Source: Terriglobia bacterium
Lineage (GTDB): Bacteria > Acidobacteriota > Terriglobia > Acidiferrales > UBA7541
NCBI GenBank assembly: GCA_963695545.1
Contig: OY968796.1
Coordinates: 928,001-992,000 of the forward strand
Direction of reading: 5' to 3'
Length of the DNA stretch: 64,000 bases
Part shown: positions 11,209 through 61,986 of the stretch, one piece after another
Numbering within the stretch: position 1 is the stretch's first letter
Layout of the letters: the number at the start of each line of letters is the position of its first letter
The notes under the pieces: generated by a model
Seen by the model: only the letters and a program-made list of their open reading frames with translations
Databases searched by the model: none
Told to the model about the DNA's origin: nothing
Program-made: the position numbers and the translations under genes

Positions 11209-11236
11209 TTATTGTGAAATCACGTGGAGATAGGCC

Positions 11237-26760: not shown

Positions 26761-26772
26761 AGGAGTTCCGGA

Positions 26773-27801: not shown

Positions 27802-27833
27802 CGGCGTTATCTTGCAGCGGGGTTATCTAGGCC

Positions 27834-33379: not shown

Positions 33380-33419
33380 ACGGAAACTGATAGAGCGTTT
33401 GGCGCGGCAGAGAAACAAC

Positions 33420-35000
33420 ATGCTCGGCACTGAAAACCAAAACGATCGCGCGGCCGCGGCTTCCGCAGACGCCGTGCTCGAAGCTCGAGATGTCGTTCAG
33501 CAGTATGGCGGGATCACCGCGCTCAAAGGCGTCACCTACCGTGTGCTGCGTGGTCAGGTAAATGTGCTGATCGGAGAAAACGGCGCGGGGAAATCGACGC
33601 TCATGCGCATTCTGGCGGGAGTCGAAAGACCAATCAACGGAACCGTTCTGCTGGATGGGCGCCCCGTCACTTTCCGGCGCAGCACGGACGCCGCACGACA
33701 AGGAATCGCCATGGTGCACCAGGAATTGAACGTGCTTCCCAATCTCGACATCGCGGAAAACATCTTTGCCGGCCGGGAGCTTTGCTCTGCGTACGGATTC
33801 ATCAAGGCCGCGAAGCAGCGCCAAGCGAGTGCGGCCGCATTGAAAACGCTTGGCCATCCGATGAGTACGCGCACGCTTGTGGGGCAGCTTTCGTTGGGCC
33901 GCCAGCAGATTACCGAACTCGCGCGATCGCTGGCGCACGAAGCGCGCGTGCTGATTCTGGACGAGCCGACGTCCGCGCTTAGCCGGACCGAAGCGGAGAC
34001 GCTGTTCGCGGTCATCGAGGACCTCAAGAGAAACGGCGTCTCCATCGTTTACATCTCTCACCGGCTAAATGAAATGTTGCGCTTGGGCGATTTTTTCACT
34101 GTTCTGCGCGATGGCCGCGTCGTGGGCAACGCGCCGCGCGCGGAGGTGGATCGGCGCTGGATCGTCGAATGTGTAACGGGGCGTGCCGCGCATAATATCG
34201 CGGCGTCGGGAACGGTTGCGGCCGGACGCGAGAGCTTGCGCGCCGAGTCCCTCAACGTCGTGGGCAGCACCCGAGACAGTGCCACGCGCCCCTTGCTTGA
34301 GGACATTTCATTCTCGGTGTCTGCCGGAGAAATTCTGGGCATTTACGGCTTGCTCGGGGCGGGCCGCACGGAACTTCTTGAAGCGCTTGCAGGCGTAAGG
34401 CCCGTCACGCGAGGAAGCATATGGGTTGGCGGCGATAAGCTGGCGCCCGGATCGGTCACGCGAGCCGTCGCTCGTGGCATCGTCTTGATGCCTGAGGATC
34501 GCCAGTCCGACGGCCTGATTCCATCGTCGTCGATCCGGGAGAATATCAGCCTGGCGGACTTCAATGGGCTAACGGTGGGCCCATTTCTTTCTCGGAAAAA
34601 AGAGTCGGCTAAAGTACGCCTGATCGCCGAGCAAGTGAAACTGAAGGTGGGCGATTGTGAACTTCCCGTAACCTCGCTGAGCGGTGGGAATCAGCAAAAG
34701 GTTATGCTCGCACGGTGTCTGATGCGCTCGCCTTCGATTCTGCTTCTGGATGAACCGACGCGCGGCGTGGACGTGGGCGCCAAAGAGGAAATCCATCGTA
34801 TCCTGCGCGAGCTGAAATCGACCGGCGTTTCGATCATTTTCACCTCCTCGGAAATCGAAGAAACCCGTTCGCTGGCCGACCGCATTCTCGTCCTCTCAGG
34901 CGGCCGGATATCGGCAGAGCTCTCGTTGGGCGATGCCTCTGAGGAAATATTGTTCGCCGCAGCATGCGCTCATCTCGAAGCGCAGGGCGCTGTTCAATGA
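33420..35000 (+). CDS. Monosaccharide ABC transporter ATPase (RbsA-like, two domains)
   Basis: GENGAGKS, LDEPTSAL, YISH, LSGGNQQKV, DEPTRGVDVG. Confidence 0.9.
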   Translation: MLGTENQNDRAAAASADAVLEARDVVQQYGGITALKGVTYRVLRGQVNVLIGENGAGKSTLMRILAGVERPINGTVLLDGRPVTFRRSTDAARQGIAMVHQELNVLPNLDIAENIFAGRELCSAYGFIKAAKQRQASAAALKTLGHPMSTRTLVGQLSLGRQQITELARSLAHEARVLILDEPTSALSRTEAETLFAVIEDLKRNGVSIVYISHRLNEMLRLGDFFTVLRDGRVVGNAPRAEVDRRWIVECVTGRAAHNIAASGTVAAGRESLRAESLNVVGSTRDSATRPLLEDISFSVSAGEILGIYGLLGAGRTELLEALAGVRPVTRGSIWVGGDKLAPGSVTRAVARGIVLMPEDRQSDGLIPSSSIRENISLADFNGLTVGPFLSRKKESAKVRLIAEQVKLKVGDCELPVTSLSGGNQQKVMLARCLMRSPSILLLDEPTRGVDVGAKEEIHRILRELKSTGVSIIFTSSEIEETRSLADRILVLSGGRISAELSLGDASEEILFAAACAHLEAQGAVQ

Positions 35001-36073
35001 TCACCGGACGCGATCCGGCGGTTGCGGAAAAACTGCAGAGCCATCGTGCGGGCGCCGGCCTCGCAGCCAGAACCTTGGCCGTGATCCTTGAATTGCGCGC
35101 GGTCGTGGCGCTGGTCTTGCTTCTCTTGCTGTTTTCGATCAGCACCTCCACTTTCCTGACAGCAAACAATCTGACGATTCTCGCCAAGCACGTGGCCATC
35201 ACCGCGATCCTGGCCATCGGCATGACCTTCGTCGTGATCACCGGCGGGATTGATTTGTCCGTAGGATCCGTCGCCGGGCTTGCCGGTATGGTCGCGGGCG
35301 CTTTGCTCACTCGCGGCCTGCTATTTTCCGGAACGCACGGGGCGGTGTATCCCGGAGTCGCCACAGTAATCGTTCTTTCTTTGCTTGTCGGAGCGCTCGT
35401 CGGTCTGCTGAACGGACTCCTGGTCGTTCGATTTGGCGTCGCTCCGTTCATCGCCACGCTCGGCACGCTGTACATCGCCCGCGGCGCCGCACTGCTGATC
35501 TCAAACGGCGCAACGTTTCCAAATCTCGGTGGAGATCCGGCCAGGCACAACACCGGATTCCTGGTGCTCGGCCAGGCGGCGTTCCTGAATATCCCGCTGC
35601 CGGTGTGGATCATGATTGCTCTCGCGATCGTGGCCAGCGTTGTGGCGGACAAAACTCCGTTCGGCCGGCACGTCTACGCCGTTGGAGGGAATGAGCGCGC
35701 CGCGCTGCTGTCGGGGATTCGCGTGGGCCGCGTCAAGATCGTGTCGTATGTAATTTCCACCGTCTGCGCCGCCATGGTCGGATTGATCATCGCGTCGCAA
35801 TTGGAGGCGGCGCATCCGGCGACGGGAGAATCCTTTGAGTTGAACGCTATCGCGGCGGTCGTGCTGGGCGGAACGTCGCTGATGGGAGGTCGCGGCTCGG
35901 TATTCGGATCTCTGGCCGGTGCGTTCGTGATCGGCGTGTTGGCCGATGGCATGGTGATGCTCGGAATTTCGGAATTCTGGCAGATGGTCATCAAGGGAGT
36001 CGTCATCGTTCTTGCCGTGGCAGTGGATCAATTGCAAACGAAATTGCAATTGCGTCTGGCGAGGAGCCACTGA
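34997..36073 (+). CDS. Monosaccharide ABC permease (RbsC-like)
   Basis: GGIDLSVG, PFIATLG, GR..YAVGGNERAA.LSG, IAAVVLGGTSL.GG.G. Confidence 0.9.
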   Translation: MITGRDPAVAEKLQSHRAGAGLAARTLAVILELRAVVALVLLLLLFSISTSTFLTANNLTILAKHVAITAILAIGMTFVVITGGIDLSVGSVAGLAGMVAGALLTRGLLFSGTHGAVYPGVATVIVLSLLVGALVGLLNGLLVVRFGVAPFIATLGTLYIARGAALLISNGATFPNLGGDPARHNTGFLVLGQAAFLNIPLPVWIMIALAIVASVVADKTPFGRHVYAVGGNERAALLSGIRVGRVKIVSYVISTVCAAMVGLIIASQLEAAHPATGESFELNAIAAVVLGGTSLMGGRGSVFGSLAGAFVIGVLADGMVMLGISEFWQMVIKGVVIVLAVAVDQLQTKLQLRLARSH

Positions 36074-36079
36074 TCCGCA

Positions 36080-37030
36080 ATGAATCTTCGCGGCACACGT
36101 CTCATCGCGTTATGCGTCCTTTCACTGCCGCTTGCAGGATGCCGCGCGAATCGTGCGGGCCAGAAAAAACTTATCGAGATCATCGTTCCCTCGCAGGACA
36201 ATCCATTCTTTCGCGCCGAGGCCGATGCCGCGTCGAAGCGAGCGACGGAGCTCGGCTATGCCGTTCGCGTGGATTCTCATGACGACGACGCCTACGAGCA
36301 GGACAACTTGATCGACGTAGCGATTGCCAGCAACGCCGCGGCGATTATTCTGGATAACGCGGGCGCGGACGCCTCCGTCTCCGCGGTTCGCCGAGCGACG
36401 CGCGCGGGCATTGCCTGCTTTCTGATCGATCGAGAAATCAACGCGACGGGCATCGCCAAGGCCCAAGTCATCGCGGACAACGATCAAGGAGCCCGTCTAG
36501 TCGCAGCGGAATTTGCGCGCTCTTTGAATGCCCAAGGTGACTACGCCGAGCTGTTAGGCAAGGAATCTGACACGAATGCCCAAGTGCGCACCAACGGCTT
36601 CCATGCAATTCTCGACCAAGACAAGGGACTGAAGTTGGTTTCGGCGCAAAGTGCGAATTGGAGTCAGTCCGAAGCGTTCCAGAAGACCGAAACGATCCTG
36701 GAAGCGCACGCCACAATTCGTGGAATCATCGCAGGCAATGACACGATGGCGCTCGGCGCCGTTGCCGCCGTCAAGAGCGCCGGCCTGCACAACATCACCA
36801 TCGTCGGATTTGACGGCAGCCCCGATGCGCTGGCTGCGATCAAGGCTGGCGATCTTGAGGCCACAGTACTCCAACCGGCGGTAGCCATTGCCCGTCTGGC
36901 TGTGGAGGAAGCGGACCAGTTCTTGAAGACCGGGACGACCGGGCGACCTGAGAAGCAAATCATTCCGTGCGAGTTGGTCACGCGACAAAACGTGGACGAT
37001 TTCGGAGTGTTTGAAAAGAAAAGCAAATGA
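36080..37030 (+). CDS. Lipoprotein sugar-binding protein (RbsB fold), resembling D-apiose/erythritol-binding proteins
   Basis: Lipobox LAGC; PS.DNPFF.AEA, HDDDA, ILDNAG.DA, FLIDREI motifs recalled from apiose/erythritol SBPs. Confidence 0.8.
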   Translation: MNLRGTRLIALCVLSLPLAGCRANRAGQKKLIEIIVPSQDNPFFRAEADAASKRATELGYAVRVDSHDDDAYEQDNLIDVAIASNAAAIILDNAGADASVSAVRRATRAGIACFLIDREINATGIAKAQVIADNDQGARLVAAEFARSLNAQGDYAELLGKESDTNAQVRTNGFHAILDQDKGLKLVSAQSANWSQSEAFQKTETILEAHATIRGIIAGNDTMALGAVAAVKSAGLHNITIVGFDGSPDALAAIKAGDLEATVLQPAVAIARLAVEEADQFLKTGTTGRPEKQIIPCELVTRQNVDDFGVFEKKSK

Positions 37031-37048
37031 ACGATTGAGGTGGTTGCC

Positions 37049-38458
37049 ATGTCCAGGACGACGTTGGCCGTAATTCTTGGGAATCGAGATTTTTTCCCCG
37101 ACCTATTGGTCTCCGAAGCTCGGGCAGACCTTCTGAAGCTGTTCGGTGAGCTTGAGATTGACGCTGTGATGCTGTCCACCGAGGACACCAAACTGGGCGC
37201 CGTTGAAACCTGGCAACACGCGGTGAAATGTGGCGAACTGTTTCGGCAAAACCGAAGCCGGATCGAAGGCATTCTGGTTTGCCTGCCTAATTTCGGAGAC
37301 GAAAAGGGCGTCGCGGACTCGATCCGCCTTTCCGAGCTGAATGTGCCGATCCTGGTGCAGGCGTGCCCGGACGACATCGATCAATTTGGTTTGGAACGCC
37401 GCCGCGACGCTTTCTGCGGCAAGATTTCCGTCTGCAACAATCTTCGCCAGTACGGCTTCCCTTTTTCGCTTACGCAAGAGCATACGGTCCCTATTCTTTC
37501 CGAGGGCTTTCGCAAGGACCTGACGGAGTTCGTCAAAGTATGCAAAGTGGTTCGTGGACTGCGCCGGGCGCGCATCGGCGCGGTGGGCGCTCGGCCGAAT
37601 GCCTTCAACACCACGCGTTATAGTGAAAAATTGCTGGAAGCCGCAGGAATCAGCGTCAACACCATCGATCTCTCCGAAGTGTTTGGAAGCGCCGCGCAAC
37701 TTGCCGACGGCGATCCTCGCGTTCGGCAACGCATCGACCAAATCAAAAGCTACGCGGATGCGAGCAAAGCGCCCGAAGATTCGCTGCTGAAAATGGCAAA
37801 GTTCGCAATCGTTCTGGATGCGTGGATGGAGAATCTAGGACTTCAGGCCACGGCCATCCAGTGCTGGAGTTCGATGCAAAAGAATTACGGCGTGAACGTC
37901 TGCACGATCATGAGCATGATGAGCGAGCAGATGATGCCCAGTGCGTGCGAAGTGGACATTGCCGGCGTGATTTCCATGTACGCGCTGCAGTTGTCCTCGG
38001 GAAAACCGAGCGCGCTCGTCGACTGGAACAATAATTACGGCAAGGATCCCGACAAATGCGTTTTCTTCCATTGCGGCAACTGGGCGAAAGATTTTCTGCC
38101 GGATATCCGCATCGGCACAGCGCCGATTCTGGGCACGGTGCTGGGCGAAGCCAATACCGTGGGCGCACTTGCCGGCCGCACTCCCGCCGGACCTGTGACG
38201 TTTGCCCGAGTCAGCACCGACGACCTGACGGGCACCATGCGCGCGTATGCCGGGGAAGGTTGGTTCACCGACGATCCGCTGGACACGTTCGGAACAAAGG
38301 CCGTCGTCAGAGTTCCGGCCCTGCAGCAACTCATGCGCCACATCTGCAAAAGCGGCTTCGGGCACCATGCCGCGATGACCGGCGCACATTGCGCCTCCGC
38401 GATGTGTGAAGCGCTGGAAAATTATCTCGGGTGGCAGGTCTACCAGCACACATCGTGA
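37049..38458 (+). CDS. L-fucose/L-arabinose isomerase-family protein
   Basis: [30 protein letters not shown]-terminal HH (FGHHAA). Confidence 0.8.
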
Positions 38459-45739: not shown

Positions 45740-46111
45740 AGCCGGGTGTAGTTGGAGGCAGTTTTCCGGCTCCGTCGCTCGCTAGAAACGCCCCATCTCA
45801 ATGAAAATGCGGCCCGTTCCTCTGTGGCTGCGCCCCATTCGCGTTCCGAGTTCGGCTACTGCGCGCGACGAGTCTGGCCGTTGCCTGCCTCTCGGTCTCG
45901 GTGATTCGATTTTCGATAGTCCGCCTAACCGCTTTGCTTCGATCGCGCCCCAATTCCTCGCCTCCATCCACTTGTCCGTCCTCCCACCTCCGGCGCCGAT
46001 CTCGTTCGCGCACTGCGCTCCGTTGCGCCTGGCGCAATCTCGCGCGAGGCCCAGGGTCCGCTCGCCGCGCTTCGAATCACAGACCATCTCCGCCCGCCCC
46101 TCGCAATCTGT

Positions 46112-46170
46112 GAATATTCGTTCGAATACTCAATTAGTACTTGACGCCTGCCTAATATCCATGCTATGCT
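46112..46170 (+). promoter_or_regulatory. Possible promoter with upstream near-palindrome
   Basis: GAATATTCG-TT-CGAATACTC (46112-46131), then TTGACG-18-TATGCT with extended TG. Confidence 0.45.
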
Positions 46171-46582
46171 CCTTCGTGTTCGCCCCTCTCCAATTCGAAA
46201 TCTCCGCTTCGCATCCCGCCCCGCTCTGCGAGTTCGGCATTTCTGCAGCGCGCGCACGCATCTCGAGTCCCCGATGTGCTCCGAGCGCGGTCCAAGCCCC
46301 CTCACAAGCCCCTGTGCTTTCAAGCGATTGCAAAAGAGTGCGCAACTCATTGAGGAAATTGGTTTTTAAGTTCCCGTGTTTTCACACTCATCCGCACTCT
46401 TTTCCTGCAAATCATGCATTTACAGCAAGTTCGCAAAAACATACCCGGGGTGTATATGCAACTTCGCCGTCGCTTGAGCCGCTCGTGCCTAAATTCCGCG
46501 GATTGACAGAACGGCGCGATCAGACGAGAGTAGCCCGTCCCTGCAGAAGCGGCTCGATCGCGATTGATTCGGCGGAGATAAC

Positions 46583-50823: not shown

Positions 50824-50853
50824 ATGAAACATTTTCCTATGAGAAACTACGCT
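50824..50853. promoter_or_regulatory. Operator in the divergent GH78/GH127 gap
   Basis: TTTTCCTATGAGAAA at 50832-50846, inside a possible ATGAAA-18-TACGCT promoter. Confidence 0.6.
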
Positions 50854-50954: not shown

Positions 50955-52799
50955 ATGAGAAAACCGCGGAAACCCCGAGCTCAAGAAGTCTCCCGGAGAG
51001 ATTTTCTCAAGGGGGCGGGGGCTGCGTTTGCGCTCGGAAGCATTGCTCGCCGGCTTCCCGCAATTTCCGCCACGCCCGCCGTTCGCCTGGGCGAATTCGA
51101 CTACGCTGATGTTCGGCTGACTGGCGGTCCGTTCAAGGACCACTACGACCGCATCCTGGCAAGCTACCTTGCGCTCGATAACGACCGGCTGCTCAAAGTG
51201 TATCGTCAGCGCGCGGGGCTCCCCGCGCCCGGCGACGACATGGGCGGTTGGTACGATGCCGATGGATTTGTGCCCGGCCACGCGCTGGGACAATTCATTT
51301 CCGGGCTTTCACGCTACGCGCGCGCCACCGGCGACGCGGATGCCTACGCGAAAGTTCGCGCGCTGATCTCGGGCTTCGGCGAGACGCTTGGCCCCGATGG
51401 CTATCCGTACGCCAGCGCCAAAGCCGCTACCACCTGGCCTTGCTACATTCTCGATAAGGACGAAATCGGTCTGCTGGATTCTTTTCGTCTCGCCGGCGTC
51501 GCGCAATCTCGCGACATGCTCACTCGCGTGATTCACGGGGCGTTGCCTTCACTGCCTGACCACACTTACGATCGCGGCCCCAATAGCCCGAAGCAAGCGC
51601 CGTATGATGAAACGTACATACTTTCGGAAAATCTTTTTGACAGCTACGAAGTGACGGGCAACCGCGAGTTTTTCGATTTGGCGCGGAAGTATCTACTTAC
51701 AACCGATTATTTCGCTCCCATGGCCACCGGCACATATCCGCTTCCCGGAAAGCACGCTTACAGCCACGTGATTGCGCTCAGTTCGGCGGCGAAGGCCTAT
51801 GAAGTTCTTGGCGATCCGATGTATCTCGAAGCCATCGAGAACGCGTGGAACTTGCTCGAAACGCAACAGCAATATGCGTCGGGAGGGTGGGGTCCGAAGG
51901 AAGCGTTCGTCGAGCCCAATAAAGGACAGCTGTACGATAGCTTGAGCACAACCGAGGATCATTTCGAGACGCCGTGCGGCTGCTACGCGCAGACCAAGCT
52001 CGCGCGCTATTTGCTGCGGTTCACAGGCGATGCGCGCTACGGAGACGGCTTGGAGCGCATTTTGTACAACACCATCCTCGGAGCCAAGGATCCCGACGGC
52101 GAGAACGATTTCTTCTATTACTCGAGCTACGGCCCGCTCTCGCAAAAGTCGTATTACAAATCCAAGGTCCCCTGTTGCGCGGGCACGCTGGTGCAGACCG
52201 TTGCGGATTACGTTTTAAATGTCTACTTCCGCGGCGATGACGGTATTTATGTGAGCCTTTATACGCCGTCCGAGTTGCGCTGGAATGCCGGCAAGATTCC
52301 CGTGAAGCTCATTCAAACCACCGACTATCCGAACGACGAGGCCGTGCATTTCCGCTTGGAGCTGCCAGTTCCAACAGAATTTGCCGTGTCCTTTCGGATT
52401 CCGCGCTGGATAAGTGGCGCCGCGGCTCTTTCGGTCAACGGCAAGAGCGTGTCGGTTCCCGCAAATCCAGGAACTTTTGCGACCATTCGCCGCCTATGGA
52501 GCACGAACGACACGATTGAATTGCGGCTGCCTTTCGAGTTCAGAACGGAAGCGATCGATAATCAGCACCCGGAAACGGTCGCCGCGATGCGCGGCCCGCT
52601 GATGTACGTCGCGGCAACCCCGCCGGAAAATCTTGCCAGCGTTGCGCTTCGACTGCCGCAGGGCCTGACGCCATTGCCGAATGCGCCCGGGCTCTTCACT
52701 TACCAGCTGCCGGAGCAAACTCTTCAATTCAAACCGTTCTTCGCCATTCACGACGAACGCTACAACACCTATTTCCTGAAGCAGGAAGCGCACGCGTGA
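50955..52799 (+). CDS. Tat-exported GH127/GH146 (DUF1680) cysteine glycosidase
   Basis: SRRDFLK Tat motif; GH.LG..IS, ETPCG, D.LER.LYN, PCCAGT, T.YP, RIP.W, RGPL. Confidence 0.85.
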   Translation: MRKPRKPRAQEVSRRDFLKGAGAAFALGSIARRLPAISATPAVRLGEFDYADVRLTGGPFKDHYDRILASYLALDNDRLLKVYRQRAGLPAPGDDMGGWYDADGFVPGHALGQFISGLSRYARATGDADAYAKVRALISGFGETLGPDGYPYASAKAATTWPCYILDKDEIGLLDSFRLAGVAQSRDMLTRVIHGALPSLPDHTYDRGPNSPKQAPYDETYILSENLFDSYEVTGNREFFDLARKYLLTTDYFAPMATGTYPLPGKHAYSHVIALSSAAKAYEVLGDPMYLEAIENAWNLLETQQQYASGGWGPKEAFVEPNKGQLYDSLSTTEDHFETPCGCYAQTKLARYLLRFTGDARYGDGLERILYNTILGAKDPDGENDFFYYSSYGPLSQKSYYKSKVPCCAGTLVQTVADYVLNVYFRGDDGIYVSLYTPSELRWNAGKIPVKLIQTTDYPNDEAVHFRLELPVPTEFAVSFRIPRWISGAAALSVNGKSVSVPANPGTFATIRRLWSTNDTIELRLPFEFRTEAIDNQHPETVAAMRGPLMYVAATPPENLASVALRLPQGLTPLPNAPGLFTYQLPEQTLQFKPFFAIHDERYNTYFLKQEAHA

Positions 52800-52845
52800 G
52801 CGACCCGAGAGACGCGCATCACCCACGCATTTGCGGTGAAGACTC

Positions 52846-54144
52846 ATGAGCGCCCTAGCGAATGAATTGAAAATGACGGATCGAATCCATGCGCGCTATT
52901 GGATTGAAACCGCGTATCCGCTGGCGGACGCGGCCGCGATGATGGCCGGCGAACAATCGACCGGCACGTTCGTTCGCGTTCCCGGCGAAACCGACGAATT
53001 GCGGGAGCGCTACGCAGCACGTGTGGAACAAATCACGGAGATCGGAATCGTCGAGCGCCCCTCCCTGCCCGGCTCGGGATTGCCGAAAGGCGCGAGAGCC
53101 GATGTCCAGCGGCGCGCCGCGGAAGTGGAACTGTCGTGGCCGATTGCGAACATGGGTCCTTCATTGCCGAATGTGATGGCCGCGGTCGCCGGCAATCTTT
53201 CCGAGCTTCGTCCGTTCTCCGGACTGAAATTGCTCGATGTGAAGCTTCCGCCGATTTTTCTTGAACGCTACGCAGGCCCGCAATTCGGAGTTGCCGGAAC
53301 ACGATCTCTCTGCGGCGTGTACGAACGGCCGGTGATCGGCACGATCATTAAACCGAGCGTCGGAATGTCTCCCGAAGCCACGGCGGAACGTGTGCGCGAG
53401 CTCGCGGAAGCCGGCGTGGACTTTATAAAGGATGATGAACTGCAAGCGAACGGCCTCGACTGTCCATTTGAAAAACGATTCCGGGCGGTTCAGGGCGTCA
53501 TCAATCGCCACGCCGATCGTACCGGCAAGAAAGTGATGTATGCAGCCAACATCACCGGAGAAATCGACGAGATGCTCGATCGCCTGGCGCAGATCGGGGC
53601 GCAGGGCGGAACTTGCGCGATGGTCAGCATGAATAGCATCGGCCTTCCAGCCATGACCGTGATTCGGAAACATTCTCGCGTCGCTATCCACGGCCATCGC
53701 AACGGTTGGGGCATGCTCGGACGGAGCCCCGCGATCGGAATGAGTTTTGTGGCTTATCAGAAGTTTTGGCGTCTGGCCGGAGTTGACCACCTGCACGTCA
53801 ACGGTCTGCAAAATAAATTCTGCGAAGACGACAGTTCGGTAATCGCGTCCGCTCGTGAGTGCCTGACGCCGATGTTCGCCGTCCCCGGCCGCGGCTGTGA
53901 AGTCATGCCGGTTTTTTCTTCAGGCCAATCCGCGCGCCAGGCACCGGAAACATATCGCGCGCTGGGCTCAACCGATCTGATCTTCGCCGCCGGCGGCGGC
54001 ATTCTGGCGCATCCGGCGGGCCCTGCCGCGGGCGTGCGGAGTCTGCATCAGGCCTGGGAAGCAGCCATTCTCGGCGTGCCGCTTGCGGAGTACGCGACGA
54101 ATCACGCGGAACTCAAAGCCGCGCTCCAAAAGTTTGCCGCGTGA
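52846..54144 (+). CDS. RuBisCO-like protein (form IV), OiaT/OiaX-like
   Basis: AGEQSTGT, GTIIKPSVG (second Lys replaced by Ser), DFIKDDE, HGHR, DHLH, NKF, FSSG, AGGG..HP; no small subunit or phosphoribulokinase in the window. Confidence 0.92.
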   Translation: MSALANELKMTDRIHARYWIETAYPLADAAAMMAGEQSTGTFVRVPGETDELRERYAARVEQITEIGIVERPSLPGSGLPKGARADVQRRAAEVELSWPIANMGPSLPNVMAAVAGNLSELRPFSGLKLLDVKLPPIFLERYAGPQFGVAGTRSLCGVYERPVIGTIIKPSVGMSPEATAERVRELAEAGVDFIKDDELQANGLDCPFEKRFRAVQGVINRHADRTGKKVMYAANITGEIDEMLDRLAQIGAQGGTCAMVSMNSIGLPAMTVIRKHSRVAIHGHRNGWGMLGRSPAIGMSFVAYQKFWRLAGVDHLHVNGLQNKFCEDDSSVIASARECLTPMFAVPGRGCEVMPVFSSGQSARQAPETYRALGSTDLIFAAGGGILAHPAGPAAGVRSLHQAWEAAILGVPLAEYATNHAELKAALQKFAA

Positions 54145-54151
54145 CGCCGCG

Positions 54152-55459
54152 ATGAATGCTCCGCTGTTCGCGTATTACGGCGACGACTTCACCGGTTCCA
54201 CCGACGTTTTGGAGGCCCTCGCCGGAAACGGCGTCCGCACAGTTTTATTTCCAGGATTGCCGAGCGAGAAACATTTGCGCGCCTTTGCGGATTGCCGCGC
54301 GATCGGAATCGCGGGAGAAAGCCGGAGCCGAGATCCGCAATGGATGACGGAAAATCTCGGCGCTGCGTTTTCGTTTCTGCAAAAGCTCGGCGCGCCCGTC
54401 AATCTCTACAAAGTGTGCTCCACGTTTGACAGCTCTCCGCAAGTGGGCAGCATCGGTCGCGCGCTTGAAATCGGCCAGGACGTTTTCCGAGCGTCCATGA
54501 TTCCGATCGTAGTCGCGGCTCCGCATCTTCGGCGTTACGTGATGTTCGCAAATCTGTTTGCCGAAGGAGGCGATGGAATCTACCGCATCGATCGCCATCC
54601 CACGATGATGCGCCACCCCGTCACGCCGATGACGGAAAGCGATTTGCGCCTGCATCTCGCCAAGCAAACGAAGCGCTCCATCGGTCTGTTGGACATCGTT
54701 GCGCTGCACGGCGAGCGCTCAAGCGAAAAGCTGCGCGACTTAGCGCGCGAAGGATATCGCGCGATTGTATTCGACGGACTCGACGAAGTGTCTTTGGAAA
54801 AAACCGGCCGATTGCTGTGGCCAAAGGACTCCACACGGCAAGAATTTGTGATTGGCAGCTCGGGCGCGGCCTACGCGTTCGTCGCACACTGGCGGGAGAC
54901 TGGTGTGCTGCCGCCGGCGATGCCTTCAGAACCGATTCGTAAAGTGGATCGACTCTTGGTGCTATCCGGCAGTTGCTCGCCTGTGACCGAGAAACAAATT
55001 CGCACGGCGGTGTCTCAGGGCTACGTGGGAATTCCGCTCGACGCGGCGTCCGTTTGCGCGCATGACGCGCGCGCACTCGATGCGCATTTTAATCAGGCGA
55101 AGCAAGCTCTCGCTGCGGGCCGCAGCGTGATTCTTTATAGCGCGATGGGGCAGGCCGATCCGGCGCTCGCCGCGCACGGCGATGATCTGGCGATCGAGAT
55201 GGGGCGGCTCTTGCGGCGGCTGGTCACCGAGTGCGCCGCGCGGCGCGTGGTGATCGCCGGCGGCGACACTTCGGGTAAGGCCGCGCAGCAACTTGGCCTT
55301 CACGCCTTGACATTCGTCGCGTCCACCCAACCGGGCGCGCCGCTGTGCCGGGGCCACGCGAACGATCCAGCTCTCGATGGCCTCGAAATCGTCTTGAAGG
55401 GCGGCCAAGTCGGCACGCCGGATTTTTTTGAATTTGTCCGGCGCGGCGGAATTAACTGA
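54152..55459 (+). CDS. Four-carbon acid sugar kinase (DUF1537; OiaK-like)
   Basis: YGDDFTG..D, SRS, YKVCSTFDS, HP.TPM.ESD, SGSCS..T, AGGDTS, LKGGQVG. Confidence 0.9.
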   Translation: MNAPLFAYYGDDFTGSTDVLEALAGNGVRTVLFPGLPSEKHLRAFADCRAIGIAGESRSRDPQWMTENLGAAFSFLQKLGAPVNLYKVCSTFDSSPQVGSIGRALEIGQDVFRASMIPIVVAAPHLRRYVMFANLFAEGGDGIYRIDRHPTMMRHPVTPMTESDLRLHLAKQTKRSIGLLDIVALHGERSSEKLRDLAREGYRAIVFDGLDEVSLEKTGRLLWPKDSTRQEFVIGSSGAAYAFVAHWRETGVLPPAMPSEPIRKVDRLLVLSGSCSPVTEKQIRTAVSQGYVGIPLDAASVCAHDARALDAHFNQAKQALAAGRSVILYSAMGQADPALAAHGDDLAIEMGRLLRRLVTECAARRVVIAGGDTSGKAAQQLGLHALTFVASTQPGAPLCRGHANDPALDGLEIVLKGGQVGTPDFFEFVRRGGIN

Positions 55460-56708
55460 CGGAGATCGCGGTCTCAGCGAGCAGCGGCTTGCTGGCATCC
55501 ACGCGAGCGAAAATTCCTGCGGCAACAAACACCATCGCCGCCACGAACCACAAGGGTTTATTGTAACTGCCGGTGATTCGGATCCCGTATCCGAATAACA
55601 CCGTGCAAAGCGCGCCGCCGAATTGCCCTGCGGTGTTCATCACACCGCTCACGGTTCCTGCAAACTCGCCTCCGATATCGAGGCACAGCGACCACGCGGA
55701 CGGCAGCATCAAATCCGTCACGCCGAATCCGAGGCACGCGAGCACAACGACCGCCGTCTTGCCGCTCACAAGCGACATTCCCATCAGCATTCCCGATCCG
55801 ACGATCAGCGCACTTGAAAGCACCACCCTGCGGCCAAACTTCAAGCCATAGCGTTTGACGAACGAATCGCTCACGAATCCACCGGCCAGATTTCCGGCGA
55901 TCCCACATACGAAAGGAAGCGCGGCGTAGAACCCCATTTGGCGTTCCGAGAAACGCGCGCTGCGAATCAGCCAGCTTGGAAACCAGGTGAAATAGAAATA
56001 GCTTCCCCACGCGTAACAGAAATAGGCGACGCTGATCATCCAGAGCTGCCGCGATTCCAGCAATCGTTTCCAGGGAATGGCGTTTCGCGTCCCCGTGTGC
56101 GCGCCCATTGCGATTTCATTTAACTCTTCTTCGCGGATTCCCGGCTGCTCGCGCGGGACATCGCGGAACCACAGTCGCCACACCGTAGCCCACGCTACGC
56201 CAAGCACGCCAAAGAGTACGAAAACGGATCGCCAGCCGATGCGCGTCTGCAAGGGCACAACCAGCAGTGGCGTCAACACTCCTCCCAATCGGCTGGCCGC
56301 CCAGATAAAACTTTGCGCACGCGCGCGCTCGGTCGTCGGAAACCATCGCGACACGACTCCGGCGGCGTTGGGGTAGGCGCCGGCTTCCCCCGCGCCAAAC
56401 AGGAAGCGCACGATCACAAGCTGCCAGAAGGAAAAACACGCGGCCGTTGCCGCCATGAAGGCTGACCACCACGCCACGATGCGCGTCAACTCCCGGCGCT
56501 GCCCGTGCCGATCACCCATCGCGCCCGAGGGGATTTCAAATAGCCCGCACGACAGCACGAACGCGCCGAGCACCCAACCCCAGCGCTCCGGAGGAATATG
56601 CAGTTGATCCTGAATCAGGGGGCCGGAAACTGCGATCGAAAGCCGGTCGAGAAAAGTTATGGCCGAAAGCACGACAAGCAGAAAAAGTACGATGTACCTT
56701 TTCCTCAA
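55452..56708 (-). CDS. MFS transporter, anion/sugar-acid (ACS-like)
   Basis: ITFLDR..I, FEIPSG..GDR.G.R, RFLFGAGEAG.YP, RWFP..ER.RA, SG.MNT.G..GG; stop overlaps the kinase stop. Confidence 0.88.
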   Translation of the reverse strand: MRKRYIVLFLLVVLSAITFLDRLSIAVSGPLIQDQLHIPPERWGWVLGAFVLSCGLFEIPSGAMGDRHGQRRELTRIVAWWSAFMAATAACFSFWQLVIVRFLFGAGEAGAYPNAAGVVSRWFPTTERARAQSFIWAASRLGGVLTPLLVVPLQTRIGWRSVFVLFGVLGVAWATVWRLWFRDVPREQPGIREEELNEIAMGAHTGTRNAIPWKRLLESRQLWMISVAYFCYAWGSYFYFTWFPSWLIRSARFSERQMGFYAALPFVCGIAGNLAGGFVSDSFVKRYGLKFGRRVVLSSALIVGSGMLMGMSLVSGKTAVVVLACLGFGVTDLMLPSAWSLCLDIGGEFAGTVSGVMNTAGQFGGALCTVLFGYGIRITGSYNKPLWFVAAMVFVAAGIFARVDASKPLLAETAISVS

Positions 56709-57397
56709 GCGGCGCCTTCTCGATTTGTTTGCGCCCGGCGGCGCAGCACCTCTCTCGCTCGAAGCACGGCGAGCTCCGGACTAGACAGCACGGGAACACG
56801 AATCGCGCCGGCGGGCAGATTGGCGAGCACGCGCGCCATGGACGCTTGCGCCAGCACAATCACATCCACCTCCGGCGCCATCTGCAGCAGCGCTTCGGAC
56901 ACGATGCGATCGTGTGTCTCGGTGTCGCCGGAGAGAACCGCGTCAAATGCTTTCGCGCAGAGACCTTCGATGAGTTCGACCGGGCGCCCGACCGCCGCGG
57001 CTTTCTCGGCAAGCAGCGCCATCGTCGGCTCAAGCGTAGTGCGCAACGTCGCCAGGACTCCGATGCGTCGACCCACTTCGATCGCCTTCTCCGCCATGGC
57101 TTCATCCACGCGAAACACCGGAATATCGAAAACTTTCTGCGCCAACGCCGCTCCCGGGCCAATGGACGAGCATGTGACCATCACGGCAGTCGCGCCGGCA
57201 GCTTCGGCCGACTCAATCATCGAAATCAATCGGCGAATCGTGAGCTTGCGCAGTTTTTGGTGCGCGATCGTGTCACGAATCAGGCTTTCATCGACCATGT
57301 GGAAGGTTGCGACGCCGGGCAGATGCTGCTTGCAGAGCGCGGCAAACACGGGCGTAAGCACGGGGCTGGTGTGAATCAGCGTTAGCGTTTCCGGCAT
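56705..57397 (-). CDS. Asp/Glu/hydantoin racemase-superfamily protein (single catalytic-type Cys)
   Basis: LIHT, VDESL, TCSSIG, RVDEAM, IGVLAT..TTL, VIVLAQASM, LSSP. Confidence 0.75.
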   Translation of the reverse strand: MPETLTLIHTSPVLTPVFAALCKQHLPGVATFHMVDESLIRDTIAHQKLRKLTIRRLISMIESAEAAGATAVMVTCSSIGPGAALAQKVFDIPVFRVDEAMAEKAIEVGRRIGVLATLRTTLEPTMALLAEKAAAVGRPVELIEGLCAKAFDAVLSGDTETHDRIVSEALLQMAPEVDVIVLAQASMARVLANLPAGAIRVPVLSSPELAVLRAREVLRRRAQTNREGAA

Positions 57398-57444: not shown

Positions 57445-60318
57445 CTATTTCTTCCATTCAAAATAATACTTTCCCGATTCAATCCGGCAGATTACAGCAT
57501 CTTTCTCCGATCGGACTAATTTTACTCCGATCGCATGGTCGAGCGCTTTGCCGCTTTCGGTGATCGTCGCCGCGGTTGGCGAGGGGATGCGAACTTCAGC
57601 TTCCGCACCCACAGGAACTGTCACGTCCAGAGTGCACTCGCCATACTTTTCGCCTCCGACTTCAAGTGGAAGCCGCGCGCGGCATTCCCAGCGGGACTCG
57701 ATTAACCCAAGCGCGGAATCAAAGCCGGCCTGTGCCGATGCGATGTCTCCAACCACCGTGGGATGTATTTCAATTTGCTCGCCCGGAGGTCGCGACAAAT
57801 CGAAATCAATACCCGCCAAGCCGCTGTAGAACCATTCCTCGGCGTCACCCAGCATGAAGTGATCCTGGGATTTCGTCGGATTGGTGTCCCACGCTTCGGT
57901 CAACGTGGTTGCGCCGCGAGCCAATTGATAGCCGTAACTCGGCGAATCGGTGCGCGAAAGCATGTCATAGAGAACATCGGAGCGCCCTCCCTCTTCGAGA
58001 GCCTGCACGACAAAATGAAAACCGACGTCTCCTGCGGTGACATGATTGTCGTGATTCCGGATGTCCTGCACAAGATTGTCCAGCACAGCCTCTCGCCGGT
58101 CGTCCGGCACCAGGCCCGCGGCCAGAGGCATGGCGTTGGCCGTCTGGCTGCCGGTGTCGTACTCGTTGGTTTGCGGGTTAAACATTTTGGCATTGAACGC
58201 GACGCGCACGGCACGCGCGAGCGCCGCATACTTCTGCGCGTCGACATCTTTGCCCAGCAGTAAGGACACTTTGTGAAGCACCGTGAGGTCCAGATAATAA
58301 ATCGACGTCGCGGTTACGCCGCGGCTCGTCAACTGCGATTCTCCGAGCGGGCCCGGGCCAACGTCGTACCAATCGCCCAAGCCATACGAAATGATGTGAT
58401 CGTCGGCGCGCGTCGCGAGATATTCCGCGTACTTCCGCATCACGTCGTATCGCTGCGCGAGCAATCGGCGGTCTCCATAGAACCGATACTCGAGCCACGG
58501 GTCCAGAATCGCCGCGCTGCCCCACTCGGGTGAATCGCGGAAGCCCGCCGGGAAAACGACATACTCGGGCGCCGTGTCTGGCACGAGCCCATTCGGGAGC
58601 TGAGTATCCGCGATGTCGTCCGAAATCTTGCGATACAACTGCGAGAGATCAAAGTTGTACATCAGCGCCGATCCCAGAAGCTGCGTCTCCTCAAGCCAGC
58701 CCAGCTTTTCGCGATGCGGACAGTCGGTCATTACGCTCTGCATATTGCTGCGCATCGCGGCGTCAATCAGTCCGTGAATGCGGTCGAGCAACTCATCGGA
58801 GCTCGAAAAATCTCCTGTAACGCGCGCCGAAGAGTGCACGAATTGCCCCTCGAGCGAAAGCAAAACGGGTTTGCCGTCATCGCCGCCGGGTTTGAGTGTG
58901 GCCCCTTCCACTTGCACGTAACGAAATCCGTAGTAACTGAATCGGGGATGCCAAGTTTCTTGGCCCGAACCTTTGAGCGTGTAAACGAAATACGACGGGC
59001 CACCGGAACTTCGCTGCGATACCAAGCCCGACGAATCCAATAGTTCGCCCGGGAGCAATTTCACTTTGTCGCCGGAATGGCCGGAGACCTTGATCGCGGG
59101 CCAACCCGAGAAATTCTGCCCCAGATCGAAAACTAAGATTCCGGGCTCGGGTTTGGTTTGCGCAACCACTGGATAAACGTGCATCACTCGAATTGGAGGA
59201 ATGAGCTGCGTCGAGAGCCGCCCGCCAGGCCCGTTCACTTCGACCGCCGGCGTCCACGCGGCATCGTTGAAGCCGGGCTCATCCCATCCGGCTTGTTCCA
59301 ATCGCGCGTCGTAATCTTCTCCACCGTATTCAGACGAAAAAGTAATAGGTCCCGGCGCGGTTTTCCACGAGGAGTCGCTGAGGATTACCGCTTCGGTCCC
59401 GTCGAGATAACGAACATGCATTTGGAAAATAAGCTTGGGCTGGCCGAACGTTCCCACAAATTTCTGGTACCGGCCCGGCGTGCGCGGCACGTTATACATG
59501 CCGTTGCCGAGCATGATGCCGATGGCATTTTCGCCGGATTTGATGAGGCTGGTCACATCGTACACGTTGCACAGAACGGCCTTGCGATAATTTGTCCAGC
59601 CGGGCGTCAAGAGATCTTCGCTGACCTTCGTGCCATTCATGCGCAATTCGTATTGTCCCAAACCGCTGACATACACCACGGCTCTTTCCACGGGCTTGGC
59701 GAGATTGAATCCATGCCGGAAGATCGGAAGCGGACGAGGCGGCGGCGCATTCGTTAAGTCCTTGGCAGCCGGCGCGGCGGATTCGCTATCGGGCTCGGCC
59801 GCGATCCACTTCGCTTTCCAATCTGCGGGTTCGAGCAATCCCATTTGCCATTGGGCGGCGTCGCTCCATACCGACGCGACGCCGTCTTGGTCCCAGACGC
59901 GCACTTTCCAGTAGTAGATTCCGTTCGATTTCAATTCCTTGCCGAAATATTCGATCTGGATCGTGCGATTTGACGCGGCCTTCCCACTGTCCCACATATC
60001 GCCGACGTCTTTGGCAAGAAGCGAAGCCGACGACGCGACCAGAATACGGTACGACGTCTGGCGCAGGCCCCTCCGTTCGCTGCCGAGGGCTTCCAGCTGC
60101 CAGCTCAGAAGCGGGCGACGCGTCTCAATCCCGAGCGGATTCTCCAATTGCTCGCAGCGCAGAAGGGTTATCCGAATCGTGCCGAGCGGCGCTCGGCGGA
60201 CGGCGATCGACTGGCTTGTGTTCGCCTTGGCGGGAGAACTTCGAGCAGCCGGAACAATTCCCAGGACCAAACCGATCGCGAAGAATTTGACGACGCGGCG
60301 CTGGCGGCGAGTTCCCAA
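57445..60318 (-). CDS. GH78 alpha-L-rhamnosidase (large multidomain type), exported; start uncertain
   Basis: WDSGK, GLGQYE, PGWTNY, GEDYDAR, DLGQNFSG, YYGFRY, TDCPHREKLGW, GDW, GATTL.E.W, SQDH. The track start at 60483 lies inside a predicted promoter; TTG 60318 gives a signal-peptide-like N-terminus. Confidence 0.88.
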   Translation of the reverse strand: MGTRRQRRVVKFFAIGLVLGIVPAARSSPAKANTSQSIAVRRAPLGTIRITLLRCEQLENPLGIETRRPLLSWQLEALGSERRGLRQTSYRILVASSASLLAKDVGDMWDSGKAASNRTIQIEYFGKELKSNGIYYWKVRVWDQDGVASVWSDAAQWQMGLLEPADWKAKWIAAEPDSESAAPAAKDLTNAPPPRPLPIFRHGFNLAKPVERAVVYVSGLGQYELRMNGTKVSEDLLTPGWTNYRKAVLCNVYDVTSLIKSGENAIGIMLGNGMYNVPRTPGRYQKFVGTFGQPKLIFQMHVRYLDGTEAVILSDSSWKTAPGPITFSSEYGGEDYDARLEQAGWDEPGFNDAAWTPAVEVNGPGGRLSTQLIPPIRVMHVYPVVAQTKPEPGILVFDLGQNFSGWPAIKVSGHSGDKVKLLPGELLDSSGLVSQRSSGGPSYFVYTLKGSGQETWHPRFSYYGFRYVQVEGATLKPGGDDGKPVLLSLEGQFVHSSARVTGDFSSSDELLDRIHGLIDAAMRSNMQSVMTDCPHREKLGWLEETQLLGSALMYNFDLSQLYRKISDDIADTQLPNGLVPDTAPEYVVFPAGFRDSPEWGSAAILDPWLEYRFYGDRRLLAQRYDVMRKYAEYLATRADDHIISYGLGDWYDVGPGPLGESQLTSRGVTATSIYYLDLTVLHKVSLLLGKDVDAQKYAALARAVRVAFNAKMFNPQTNEYDTGSQTANAMPLAAGLVPDDRREAVLDNLVQDIRNHDNHVTAGDVGFHFVVQALEEGGRSDVLYDMLSRTDSPSYGYQLARGATTLTEAWDTNPTKSQDHFMLGDAEEWFYSGLAGIDFDLSRPPGEQIEIHPTVVGDIASAQAGFDSALGLIESRWECRARLPLEVGGEKYGECTLDVTVPVGAEAEVRIPSPTAATITESGKALDHAIGVKLVRSEKDAVICRIESGKYYFEWKK

Positions 60319-60461
60319 GGTGCAAGCAAACACCCGAGATGGCGCGCAATGCAAGGTCCGTGCGCTCGAGAAGGGGCCGGTCCCGCCGCTAGGGGCAAGA
60401 GGGGCGCAGCCGCTCTCGCTATCGGCGGAGTGGACCGATTTTGTCCAGCGAGAGAAGCGCA

Positions 60462-60516
60462 AGAATATTCGGGGAACGCGCAATTGTCAATAGTAATGCA
60501 GATTGCCTATTGAAAT
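60462..60516 (-). promoter_or_regulatory. Sigma70 promoter of the GH78-racemase-MFS operon with upstream operator
   Basis: Minus strand TTGACA (60490-60485)-17-TATTCT (60467-60462); motif ATTGCCTATTGAAAT at 60502-60516. Confidence 0.7.
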
Positions 60517-60885: not shown

Positions 60886-61986
60886 TTGCGGAAGACGGGC
60901 CTAAAGCGGTTGTATCTGATTCCAGTGCTCTCAAAGGCGCTGGATGTTCTGGACCTTCTGCAGAAGGGGGGACAACCGCTTTCGCTGGAATCTATTTATC
61001 AGCAAACGAACATCTCCAAGACCACGGTCTATCGCATTCTCAAGACATTTGTGCATCGCGGATATTTGGCGCAGTCGGATGACGGGCTCTACCGCATGGT
61101 CGCGCGGCTCAAGAAAGCAAGATTTGGATTTGGAAGCCAATCGGCCGAGTTGCCTTTCTCAAACGCGGTCACCGACAGCCTCAAGTCCGCCGCGGCGGCG
61201 ACCGGCGTCGATTTGGTGGTGATGGACAATCGCTATAGCGGTTCCGCGGCAGTTCACAATGCCGACGAATTCGTTTGCCAGCGCGTGGACGTGGTCATCG
61301 AATTCCAAATCGATCAGCACTGCGCTCCGATTATCGCCGATCGATTTGACGGCGCGGGGATTCCCTTCATTGCCGTGGATATCCCGCATCCTCACGCCAT
61401 CTTCTTCGGAGTGAACAACTATCGCGTTGGATTTGAAGCCGGCTCATTCGCCGCGAAGCACGCCTCAAAAATGTGGGACGGTAAACCGCCGTTGGTCTTG
61501 GGTTTGGACGTTGAGGAAGCGGGCCCCTTGGTGCAAAGCCGGATCACCGGGGCGTTTGAAGGGGTTCGCTCCGTGTACACGGAAATCGAGGATCAGAATT
61601 TCCTGCGATTGGATGGCCGCGGGCTTCGCGAAAAAAGCTACCGAGTCGTCCTGGACTTCCTCAATCGCCATCCCAAGGAGCAGCGCATTCTGATCGTGGC
61701 CGCAACGGACACGAGCGCCTTAGGGGCGCTGCACGCGGTGCAGGAATTAAAGCGCGAAAAGCACGTGGCCATCGTAGGACAGGAGTCCATTCCGGAAGCC
61801 ATCGAGGCTATGAGTGTGCCCGGCAGTCCGTTCATCGGCTCGGTCTCGCACGAGGCGCACACTTACGGTCCGCGGCTGATTCAGCTCGGCCTCGCGCTGC
61901 TGAACGGCCAGCGCGTTCCGCCCTACAGCTACGTCGATCACAAACTCGTGACCGCCGCCGAGGTCCGCGGAAATCTTCGGGAGTGA
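60886..61986 (+). CDS. Regulator: IclR-type HTH fused to an RbsB/LacI-type sugar-binding domain
   Basis: Y.IPVLSKALD.L..L...ISKTTVYRIL.T..RGYL; then PF...V..., GIP.IAVDI, FGVNNY..G...G, R..G, IVGQ. Confidence 0.8.
   Translation: MRKTGLKRLYLIPVLSKALDVLDLLQKGGQPLSLESIYQQTNISKTTVYRILKTFVHRGYLAQSDDGLYRMVARLKKARFGFGSQSAELPFSNAVTDSLKSAAAATGVDLVVMDNRYSGSAAVHNADEFVCQRVDVVIEFQIDQHCAPIIADRFDGAGIPFIAVDIPHPHAIFFGVNNYRVGFEAGSFAAKHASKMWDGKPPLVLGLDVEEAGPLVQSRITGAFEGVRSVYTEIEDQNFLRLDGRGLREKSYRVVLDFLNRHPKEQRILIVAATDTSALGALHAVQELKREKHVAIVGQESIPEAIEAMSVPGSPFIGSVSHEAHTYGPRLIQLGLALLNGQRVPPYSYVDHKLVTAAEVRGNLRE

Follow-up and report, generated by a model that had tools for sequence, protein, structure and literature searches.

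The 64,000-nucleotide stretch of DNA analysed here (the window) comes from a Terriglobia bacterium of the Acidobacteriota (assembly GCA_963695545.1, contig OY968796.1, positions 928,001 to 992,000), and includes five adjacent genes encoding a GH127-like glycosidase (GH127x), a form IV RuBisCO-like protein (RLP), a DUF1537 kinase, a carrier of the major facilitator superfamily (MFS) and a protein with the Asp/Glu racemase fold (RAC). The source is a single 4.16 Mb contig, rated 93.8% complete, that contains the whole window. From gene content and genomic context we consider it fairly probable that these five genes constitute a catabolic cassette for aceric acid (3-C-carboxy-5-deoxy-L-xylose), a branched acid sugar of rhamnogalacturonan II (RG-II). 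The genes, with the domain matches of their products, are arranged as follows.

50955..52799, + strand: GH127-like gene, GH127x (Pfam GH127 catalytic domain PF07944 171.8 bits, middle domain 79.5 bits)
52846..54144, + strand: form IV RLP (Pfam RuBisCO_large PF00016 228.9 bits; PF02788 36.5 bits)
54152..55459, + strand, in an open reading frame (ORF) from 54083: DUF1537 kinase (SBD_N 176.5 bits, NBD_C 108.9 bits)
55452..56708, - strand: MFS carrier of the anion:cation symporter (ACS) type (TIGR00893 233.7 bits)
56705..57397, - strand, in an ORF to 57457: Asp/Glu-racemase-fold protein, RAC (PF01177 87.8 bits, cut-off 31)

Searching the ORFs of the window with Pfam and NCBIfam reproduced the content, order and strands of these five genes as claimed in an earlier note on this DNA. 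The glycosidase gene is closely trailed by the RLP and kinase genes, as that note described, with a gap of 46 nt between GH127x and the RLP and with the ATG of the kinase at 54152 only 8 nt past the RLP stop; the three genes form one operon. This ATG is conserved and likely to be the translation start of the kinase, and RAC has a conserved start Met at 57397 although its ORF reaches 57457. The racemase-superfamily gene and the ACS-type MFS gene converge on the GH127x operon, both being on the minus strand, which again agrees with the earlier description. The RLP, which is the only one in the window genome, combines the RuBisCO fold and an invariant DFIKDDE motif with the absence of any carbon-fixation context at the locus, and is hence of form IV; its scores on the RuBisCO form III and form II models are below their cut-offs. 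The kinase has the SBD_N and NBD_C domain pair that defines DUF1537 proteins. For the MFS carrier the nearest NCBIfam model, TIGR00893, describes the D-galactonate transporter subfamily, and its score of 233.7 bits falls short of the cut-off of 395.

Related RLP loci were assembled from a scan of species-representative genomes (80 loci) and from two annotated plasmid loci, giving 82 loci in total and 83 RLPs when the window is included. Residues K169, K195, D197, E198, H284, R285, H317, K324, S359, G360 and G383-385 are invariant across all 83 proteins, and presumably correspond to the RuBisCO residue numbers to which we have matched them. In a maximum-likelihood tree the window RLP falls in a clade of 38 rows, that is, the window and 37 related loci (Shimodaira-Hasegawa-like approximate likelihood ratio test, SH-aLRT, 92), which are from Acidobacteriota, Sphingomonadales and some Gammaproteobacteria. 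Genes in these loci were counted by comparison with reference sequences, because shadow ORFs cause greedy ORF clustering to undercount in high-GC loci. The kinase is positioned after the RLP in 34 of the 37 loci and the remaining three end at a contig edge; GH127x is found in 30 loci, in 29 of them directly upstream of the RLP, while the MFS carrier is present in 30 and RAC in 29. Most absences fall at contig ends. The arrangement is far beyond chance, since the order GH127x-RLP-kinase is kept in 29/37 loci.

Outside the clade, RLP, kinase and RAC genes occur together in a Chloroflexota metagenome-assembled genome (MAG), Olivibacter, a Rufibacter plasmid, a planctomycete, two Paenibacillus, an actinobacterium and a haloarchaeal MAG. 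A carrier of the SBF (bile acid:Na+ symporter) family takes the place of the MFS in the cassettes of Bacteroidota (Olivibacter and the Rufibacter plasmid) and Planctomycetota, and the linked carriers are organic-anion types (ACS-type MFS or SBF) in all lineages examined. A Croceibacterium plasmid has the RAC-MFS pair approximately 30 kb from GH127-RLP-kinase on one replicon. Carriers that can be cultured include Telmatobacter bradus DSM 23630, Bryocella elongata DSM 22489 and Sphingomonas pruni. Further carbohydrate-active enzymes are added in related loci, among them GH2, GH28, GH95 and GH106 families, pectinesterase and GDSL esterases. The RAC tree broadly matches the RLP tree, as expected of a cassette that is inherited as a unit. 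The earlier note had named as support the co-occurrence of this RLP clade with the racemase-like gene and RG-II carbohydrate-active enzymes, without apnO, a gene of the oxidative D-apionate routes. The loci of the clade do hold the racemase-like gene, together with an anion carrier and carbohydrate-active enzymes of the pectin or RG-II type, and apnO is present in none of the 37 locus stretches.

Two further kinds of gene accompany the cassette in particular lineages. GDSL/SGNH esterases lie beside it in several (in our numbering of loci, L014:17555-18379 and 10779-12005; L054:3585-4217; L102:2742-3950), and in the Croceibacterium plasmid one directly follows the kinase. Aceric acid in RG-II is O-acetylated, and these esterases may be the matching deacetylases. 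In the two Paenibacillus loci a protein of approximately 575 amino acids (aa) is encoded directly upstream of RAC-RLP-kinase (L077:7482-9215, L082:7538-9262); it has no Pfam or NCBIfam match and no sequence similarity to GH127x or to solved structures in the PDB, and is possibly an unrecognised glycosidase, in the slot filled by GH127-type genes elsewhere.

The connection to aceric acid comes through the glycosidase. GH127x carries a twin-arginine leader (SRRDFLKG), maintained throughout its subfamily, and is predicted to be exported by twin-arginine translocation (TAT). Its Glu-x-x-Cys and Cys-Cys motifs align to 5opj and 4qjy, which places it among the GH127/GH146 cysteine glycosidases, and residues E338, C341, C407 and C408 do not vary among 31 clade members; we take the catalytic roles of these residues to be those of HypBA1. 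BT1003 of Bacteroides thetaiotaomicron, a GH127 enzyme, is reported to be an aceric acid hydrolase, and GH127x belongs to the same Pfam family and has the same motif of one Glu and three Cys. Searches with NF049879, the aceric acid hydrolase model (cut-off 950 bits, exceeded in the control genome of B. thetaiotaomicron), located relatives of this enzyme at cassettes of other lineages. The gene directly upstream of the RLP in the Chloroflexota locus L054 scores 996.5 bits and its counterpart in the Actinomycetota locus L093 749.2 bits, the Planctomycetota locus L065 has a match of 942.9 bits approximately 5 kb from the cassette, and Olivibacter has one of 1196.3 bits elsewhere in its genome. 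GH127x occupies the same position upstream of the RLP that NF049879-type genes hold in L054 and L093.

The RLP and the kinase have their closest functional parallel in the oxidative D-apionate routes, which are said to comprise ApnO, the DUF1537 kinase OiaK and one of two RLPs, OiaX (a decarboxylase) or OiaT (a transcarboxylase/hydrolase). The characterised OiaT is that of Xanthobacter autotrophicus and the characterised OiaX that of Agrobacterium radiobacter K84. Summaries of the routes are given in PMC13753588 and in one passage of PMC6302742. Like them, the cassette has adjacent RLP and DUF1537 kinase genes, and the best NCBIfam matches of the two proteins are OiaX (NF042437, 443.8 bits) and OiaK (NF042436, 469.3 bits, against 196.9 bits on the OtnK model), both below the respective cut-offs of 700 bits. 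These cut-offs are narrow, because none of the related RLPs run against NF042437 (55 of 82) reaches 700 (range 392.8-558.6 bits), and because even the kinase of the Rhizobium etli oiaX operon is named merely 'four-carbon acid sugar kinase family protein'; failing them therefore says little of the chemistry. The cassette differs from the D-apionate pathway in that ApnO is missing from the window genome and in its conserved partners, namely the cofactor-free RAC, the anion carrier and a GH127-type glycosidase.

The window RLP is 61% identical to a Microvirga RLP from an RLP-kinase-ApnO cluster and 44.5% identical to the R. etli protein named OiaX by the Prokaryotic Genome Annotation Pipeline (PGAP), to which no RLP among the 83 exceeds 51%. 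A search for homologues of the window RLP returned generic names only, without an OiaT or OiaX label, so that the tree holds no characterised OiaT; the closest relatives are named as proteins of Acidobacteriota MAGs. On R. etli plasmid p42f the PGAP-named oiaX belongs to an oiaX-kinase-TIM-RpiB-PGDH_C cluster, in which the TIM-like and RpiB-like isomerases would process the product of decarboxylation by OiaX. The cassette has no such isomerases, and they are absent from all 82 RLP loci. No aldolase is conserved among the clade loci, and the window genome has three class II aldolase-family genes outside the locus. Members of the RLP group that are linked to ApnO form three-gene RLP-kinase-ApnO clusters, a composition that PMC13753588 gives for the OiaT route. 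Because of this locus context alone (no TIM/RpiB isomerases, no aldolase, three-gene ApnO clusters), we modestly favour a transcarboxylase/hydrolase forming 3-phosphoglycerate and lactate as more likely than a decarboxylase.

A second parallel is the tetronate pathway, reportedly made up of LtnD, OtnI, OtnK and OtnC. It is likewise summarised in PMC13753588. Its logic is that proposed for the cassette, whereby a 3-oxo acid is made, phosphorylated on a terminal alcohol by a DUF1537 kinase, and its carboxyl group then removed or moved; however, the tetronate isomerase has a TIM-barrel fold and works on a 2-oxo acid, and the decarboxylase is of the class II aldolase family and not an RLP.

We took PF16896 (PGDH_C, with an N-domain of the ketol-acid reductoisomerase (KARI) type) to represent the ApnO family, because a PF16896 gene adjoins the RLP and kinase in Microvirga and, in R. 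etli, the gene that PGAP names oiaX; PMC13753588 reports a KARI-like fold for ApnO, in agreement with this. Other candidates were rejected: NF042435 is QuiC; a definition by PF03446 and PF09130 was set aside when PF09130 matched nothing, the controls included; and the five strong PF03446 proteins of the window genome are HIBADH- or 6PGDH-like. An ApnO-type query against PDB sequences matched 5t57 and 3c24. The whole 4.16 Mb window genome has no PF16896 match at E<=1, the best hit of the protein search being 19 bits and that of tblastn having an E-value of 0.37, so that the absence of ApnO noted earlier for the window extends to the rest of the genome. The search was extended to 21 further genomes whose RAC-type cassette stands in a locus lacking ApnO, and in 17 of them PF16896 matches nothing genome-wide; ApnO was recovered in 9/9 positive-control genomes. 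Where ApnO does occur, it travels in seven loci with a protein of approximately 630 aa that has no Pfam match (L015:6422-8350, L102:8750-10624, L057, L078, L080, L081, L084), and some of these loci also hold a Gfo/Idh/MocA oxidoreductase; this companion may be an apionolactonase or another upper-pathway enzyme.

RAC is the only PF01177 match in the window genome, and the PF01177 search detected no glutamate racemase of the MurI type. An alignment-based AlphaFold model of RAC (mean predicted local distance difference test, pLDDT, 96.8) matches Asp/Glu racemases in Foldseek with E-values down to 3.6e-9, TM-scores of 0.72-0.76 and 14-21% sequence identity, which establishes the racemase fold. Its only invariant cysteine across 38 sequences is Cys96 (Cys76 when counted from Met21), in a TCSS motif at the first catalytic junction, the same strand-helix junction that bears the first cysteine of Asp/Glu, hydantoin and allantoin racemases. 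The site of the second catalytic cysteine, assigned by motif and by secondary-structure position (strand 179-182 and helix 185-193 of the model), reads L-A-Q-A-S-M and has an invariant Gln, which is Gln184 in the numbering from Met21; an H-D pair is invariant also. RAC therefore keeps one of the two catalytic cysteines of two-base racemases, from which it differs further in having sugar-acid enzymes as its genomic partners. Aldose-ketose isomerases operate by a suprafacial 1,2-proton shift, for which a single base is enough, and the one-Cys active site of RAC fits a single-base 1,2-proton transfer of this kind. Arylmalonate decarboxylase is another one-Cys member of the fold, which retains the C-terminal cysteine, unlike RAC, which retains the N-terminal one. 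RAC has no cofactor domain and therefore cannot replace the NAD-dependent ApnO on apionate.

These elements can be assembled into a pathway, of which we infer all the substrates and reactions. Aceric acid would offer neither a primary alcohol to a DUF1537 kinase nor a proton alpha to its carboxylate, and the 2-ketose formed by isomerisation would have the primary alcohol as well as the 2-carboxy-3-keto motif that is the target of RLPs in this group. We propose that RG-II fragments would enter the periplasm, probably via the nearby TonB-dependent receptor, that GH127x, predicted to be exported by the TAT route, would free aceric acid there, and that the anion-type MFS carrier would import it. 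RAC would then act as a single-base, cofactor-free aldose-ketose isomerase, moving the C2 proton to C1 to give HOCH2-CO-C(OH)(COO-)-CH(OH)CH3, the methyl homologue of 3-oxo-isoapionate; the proposed kinase substrate is thus the intermediate of the D-apionate pathway plus one methyl group. The DUF1537 kinase would phosphorylate the primary alcohol made by isomerisation, and the RLP would apply RuBisCO-type chemistry to the resulting 2-carboxy-3-keto phosphate, yielding 3-phosphoglycerate and lactate by transcarboxylation and hydrolysis. Alternatively, decarboxylation by the RLP would produce 5-deoxy-pentulose 1-phosphate, to be split by an aldolase encoded elsewhere.

Since aceric acid and the keto acid are isomers, this route would need no oxidoreductase and therefore ApnO can be absent; the step being redox-neutral, a cofactor-free enzyme could take on a role that for apiose is shared by ApsD, ApnL and ApnO. 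The earlier interpretation of the locus as an aceric acid route without ApnO is supported by all the computational tests that we ran, and remains a hypothesis as regards the chemistry. As the earlier note had also maintained, no description of aceric acid breakdown appears in the texts returned by a full-text literature search (aceric acid with catabolism, RLP or DUF1537), within the passages available.

Beyond the five genes, the locus and its surroundings include the following features.

57445..60483, - strand: GH78 alpha-L-rhamnosidase (Pfam), with RAC 47 nt downstream
60886..61986, + strand: regulator with an IclR-type helix-turn-helix (HTH) domain and a periplasmic-binding-protein-like (PBP-type) sensor, divergent from GH78-RAC-MFS
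30091..38458, + strand: co-directional cluster of a split transketolase (two genes), an FGGY kinase, a sugar ABC transporter and a FucI-like isomerase
37040-38458: the FucI-like protein, at the end of this transketolase-type cluster
50832..50846, + strand: imperfect palindrome resembling an operator, TTTTCCTATGAGAAA, within the 191-nt divergent promoter region that precedes GH127x

As RAC lies only 47 nt downstream of GH78 on the same strand, GH78, RAC and MFS are probably one transcription unit, and a GH78 homologue is found in many of the clade loci. The IclR-HTH/PBP-type protein is a candidate regulator of the locus, judged by its sequence and position; homologues with 33-37% identity occur in Acidobacteriota clade loci. 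The 15-nt palindrome (TTTyCCTATGrGAAA) is found at 50832 before the GH127x operon, at 29948 before the transketolase operon and at 45725 in the divergent region between a receptor and a fucosidase gene. Four matches with no more than three mismatches occur in the window, against 0.98 expected, and 1 of 100 shuffled sequences reached four. The statement of the earlier note that both operons carry the same operator is thus reproduced in part: the copy at the GH127x operon stands, and upstream of GH78-RAC-MFS the best site, at 60502, is a weak version with five mismatches, as is one at 63753 upstream of a GH39-like gene.

The cluster at 30091-38458 looks like the transketolase route for D-apiose, having the gene set that this route is said to possess. 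PMC13753588 confirms no more than that such a route exists. Its FGGY kinase scores 563 bits on a GlpK subfamily model, and homologues of the cluster lie near the cassette in L018, L024, L071 and L082. The cluster can account for apiose, and the palindromes suggest that putative apiose and aceric acid genes may be members of one regulon.

The wider surroundings form a plant cell-wall locus, with a GH29 fucosidase, a second GH78-like protein, GH42, a GH43-like propeller, a TonB-dependent receptor and a GH39-like protein. Two ORFs here are without Pfam or NCBIfam matches: one (45178-45804) lies opposite the TonB-dependent receptor gene, whose 5' end it overlaps on the other strand, and is probably spurious, and the other (45801-46586) precedes the GH29 fucosidase and may encode a real protein. 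Further upstream is a hybrid histidine kinase of 2105 residues (12131-18448), in which approximately 11 HAMP repeats are combined with a GAF domain and three receiver domains. The stretch 23175-28613 holds a module of a family III CoA-transferase, two SBP_bac_1 proteins, a RhaT-like permease and an IclR regulator. The same CoA-transferase module accompanies the GH127-RLP cassette in the Steroidobacteraceae-type loci L047-L049 and L051 (CoA-transferase 57-58% identical), and may serve another RG-II sugar.

Several findings weigh against the aceric acid interpretation, in whole or in part. The cassette is rare in a sample of the window's phylum, RAC occurring in two of 201 genomes (200 sampled and the window's own, which is one of the two), a sample that is hardly informative. 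Three alternative explanations can be set out. The first accepts an aceric acid cassette and denies that RAC is its isomerase: RAC would be a racemase of the lactate that the RLP releases or of another 2-hydroxy acid, or would decarboxylate the beta-keto acid in the manner of arylmalonate decarboxylase, and isomerisation would be left to some other protein, such as the FucI-like one at 37040-38458. The fold normally acts at the carbon alpha to a carboxylate, where aceric acid has no proton, and structures of arylmalonate decarboxylase are among the fold matches of RAC. Moreover, RAC has homologues in rhizobia that are 45-48% identical with the same motifs, accounting by organism name (Rhizobium or Sinorhizobium) for 50 of 88 matching records. 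They are common on plasmids and are set apart on a long branch of the RAC tree, and in the two records inspected (R. etli p42f 398587-399270, L111; S. meliloti pB, L117) the homologue forms a divergent pair with a DAO-family FAD oxidoreductase and is not beside an RLP. These contexts imply that the RAC family is not exclusive to the proposed pathway, and a neighbour of the D-amino-acid-dehydrogenase type suggests racemase-like chemistry, although the branch is compatible with a diverged function. Set against this, no alternative isomerase recurs with the cassette, the FucI-like gene being present in one of the 37 clade loci, and a substrate that had not been isomerised would offer the kinase no primary alcohol. 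Racemisation requires two bases where RAC conserves one Cys, and a decarboxylating RAC would leave the RLP redundant. We judge it unlikely, on balance, that RAC has such a role, and retain the isomerase as the preferred function.

A second explanation holds that kinase and RLP simply act on 3-oxo-isoapionate (as OiaK and an OiaT-like RLP) in the service of D-apiose or D-apionate, with an unrelated and unrecognised oxidoreductase in place of ApnO where that is absent, and RAC as an accessory. Apiose is likewise an RG-II sugar. The clade of the window RLP is nested among ApnO-linked RLPs in the tree, and no residue separates all RAC-linked from all ApnO-linked sequences across lineages, F234A and an insertion of 2-3 residues at 346-348 being specific to the window clade only; the RLP therefore gives no sign of a different substrate. 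ApnO occurs in the other four of the 21 cassette genomes, all Sphingomonadales, in three of which it is on the same contig at 4-14 kb from the locus, and in Novosphingobium flavum it is inside the same polysaccharide locus beside a fucosidase. In the Acidobacteriota MAG locus L086, RAC, MFS, RLP, kinase and ApnO are in one operon. Since the two genes co-occur in L086 and in these Sphingomonadales genomes, RAC is not a strict replacement for ApnO, and the pattern is consistent with RAC and ApnO being alternative enzymes that feed a single kinase and RLP pair. Nor does phylogeny uphold an anti-correlation of the two: after 12 truncated loci were dropped, 37 of the 71 remaining rows had RAC and 14 had ApnO, one row having both and 21 rows neither, but with only six phylogenetically independent pairs the sign test gave a median p of 0.5. 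It may be added that convergent apiose and apionate enzymes, still awaiting identification, are expected according to PMC13753588.

This second explanation is countered by the lack in the window genome of both ApnO and any homologue of its companion of approximately 630 aa, and by the fact that no dehydrogenase is conserved in the 37 clade loci. Apiose can already be covered by the transketolase-type cluster of the window, and the cassette is physically tied to relatives of the aceric acid hydrolase and to GH127-type genes, not to apiosidases. We therefore attach a low probability to an apiose or apionate function and continue to prefer aceric acid as the substrate.

The third explanation is that the cassette acts on a different acid freed by GH127x, its linkage to hydrolase relatives being due to a common setting in pectin loci and not to a common substrate. 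GH127x represents a divergent subfamily that may have another specificity. It is not an orthologue of BT1003, for it scores 105.7 bits on NF049879, over residues 341-552 (212 residues) only, against the cut-off of 950, and it has no match to the GH127 C-terminal domain. Its best solved relatives are the GH146 protein BT0349 (5opj, 135.6 bits) and 5mqo (83.9 bits), and the nearest of these, 5opj, is a beta-L-arabinofuranosidase. No protein of the window genome exceeds the NF049879 cut-off, the best reaching 474.1 bits, and no NF049879-type gene was found at E<=1e-100 in four isolates of the window clade, or genome-wide in the Paenibacillus and haloarchaeal genomes with a cassette. Three or four clade loci, L021, L029 and L031 among them, are without GH127x despite approximately 10 kb of upstream sequence. 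An acid other than aceric acid nevertheless seems improbable, given that NF049879-type genes of 749-997 bits immediately precede the RLP in two independent lineages and lie approximately 5 kb away in a third, that the linked carriers are all anion types, and that aceric acid is, to our knowledge, the only natural sugar already isomeric with a 2-carboxy-3-keto acid. For GH127x, sequence comparison suggests, as the simplest reading, a non-orthologous displacement of the enzyme that releases aceric acid.

Taken in full, the proposal is of an undescribed, complete aceric acid pathway, spread horizontally over at least seven phyla, in which RAC would be a new kind of isomerase, the RLP would yield 3-phosphoglycerate and lactate, and GH127x would replace BT1003 in Acidobacteriota and Sphingomonadales; we advance this more detailed version tentatively, at somewhat less than an even chance. 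The release of aceric acid from RG-II is already known, and such a pathway, if true, would close the last remaining gap among the branched sugars of RG-II. It would add a new reaction to the few functions of RuBisCO-like proteins, represent the first sugar-isomerase role for the Asp/Glu racemase fold and define a new specificity clade within GH127/146. The chemistry of the RAC family could be further defined with the help of the rhizobial context, in which RAC stands with a DAO-family oxidoreductase. For the Acidobacteriota and Sphingomonadales of soil, the cassette would provide a gene marker of RG-II turnover.

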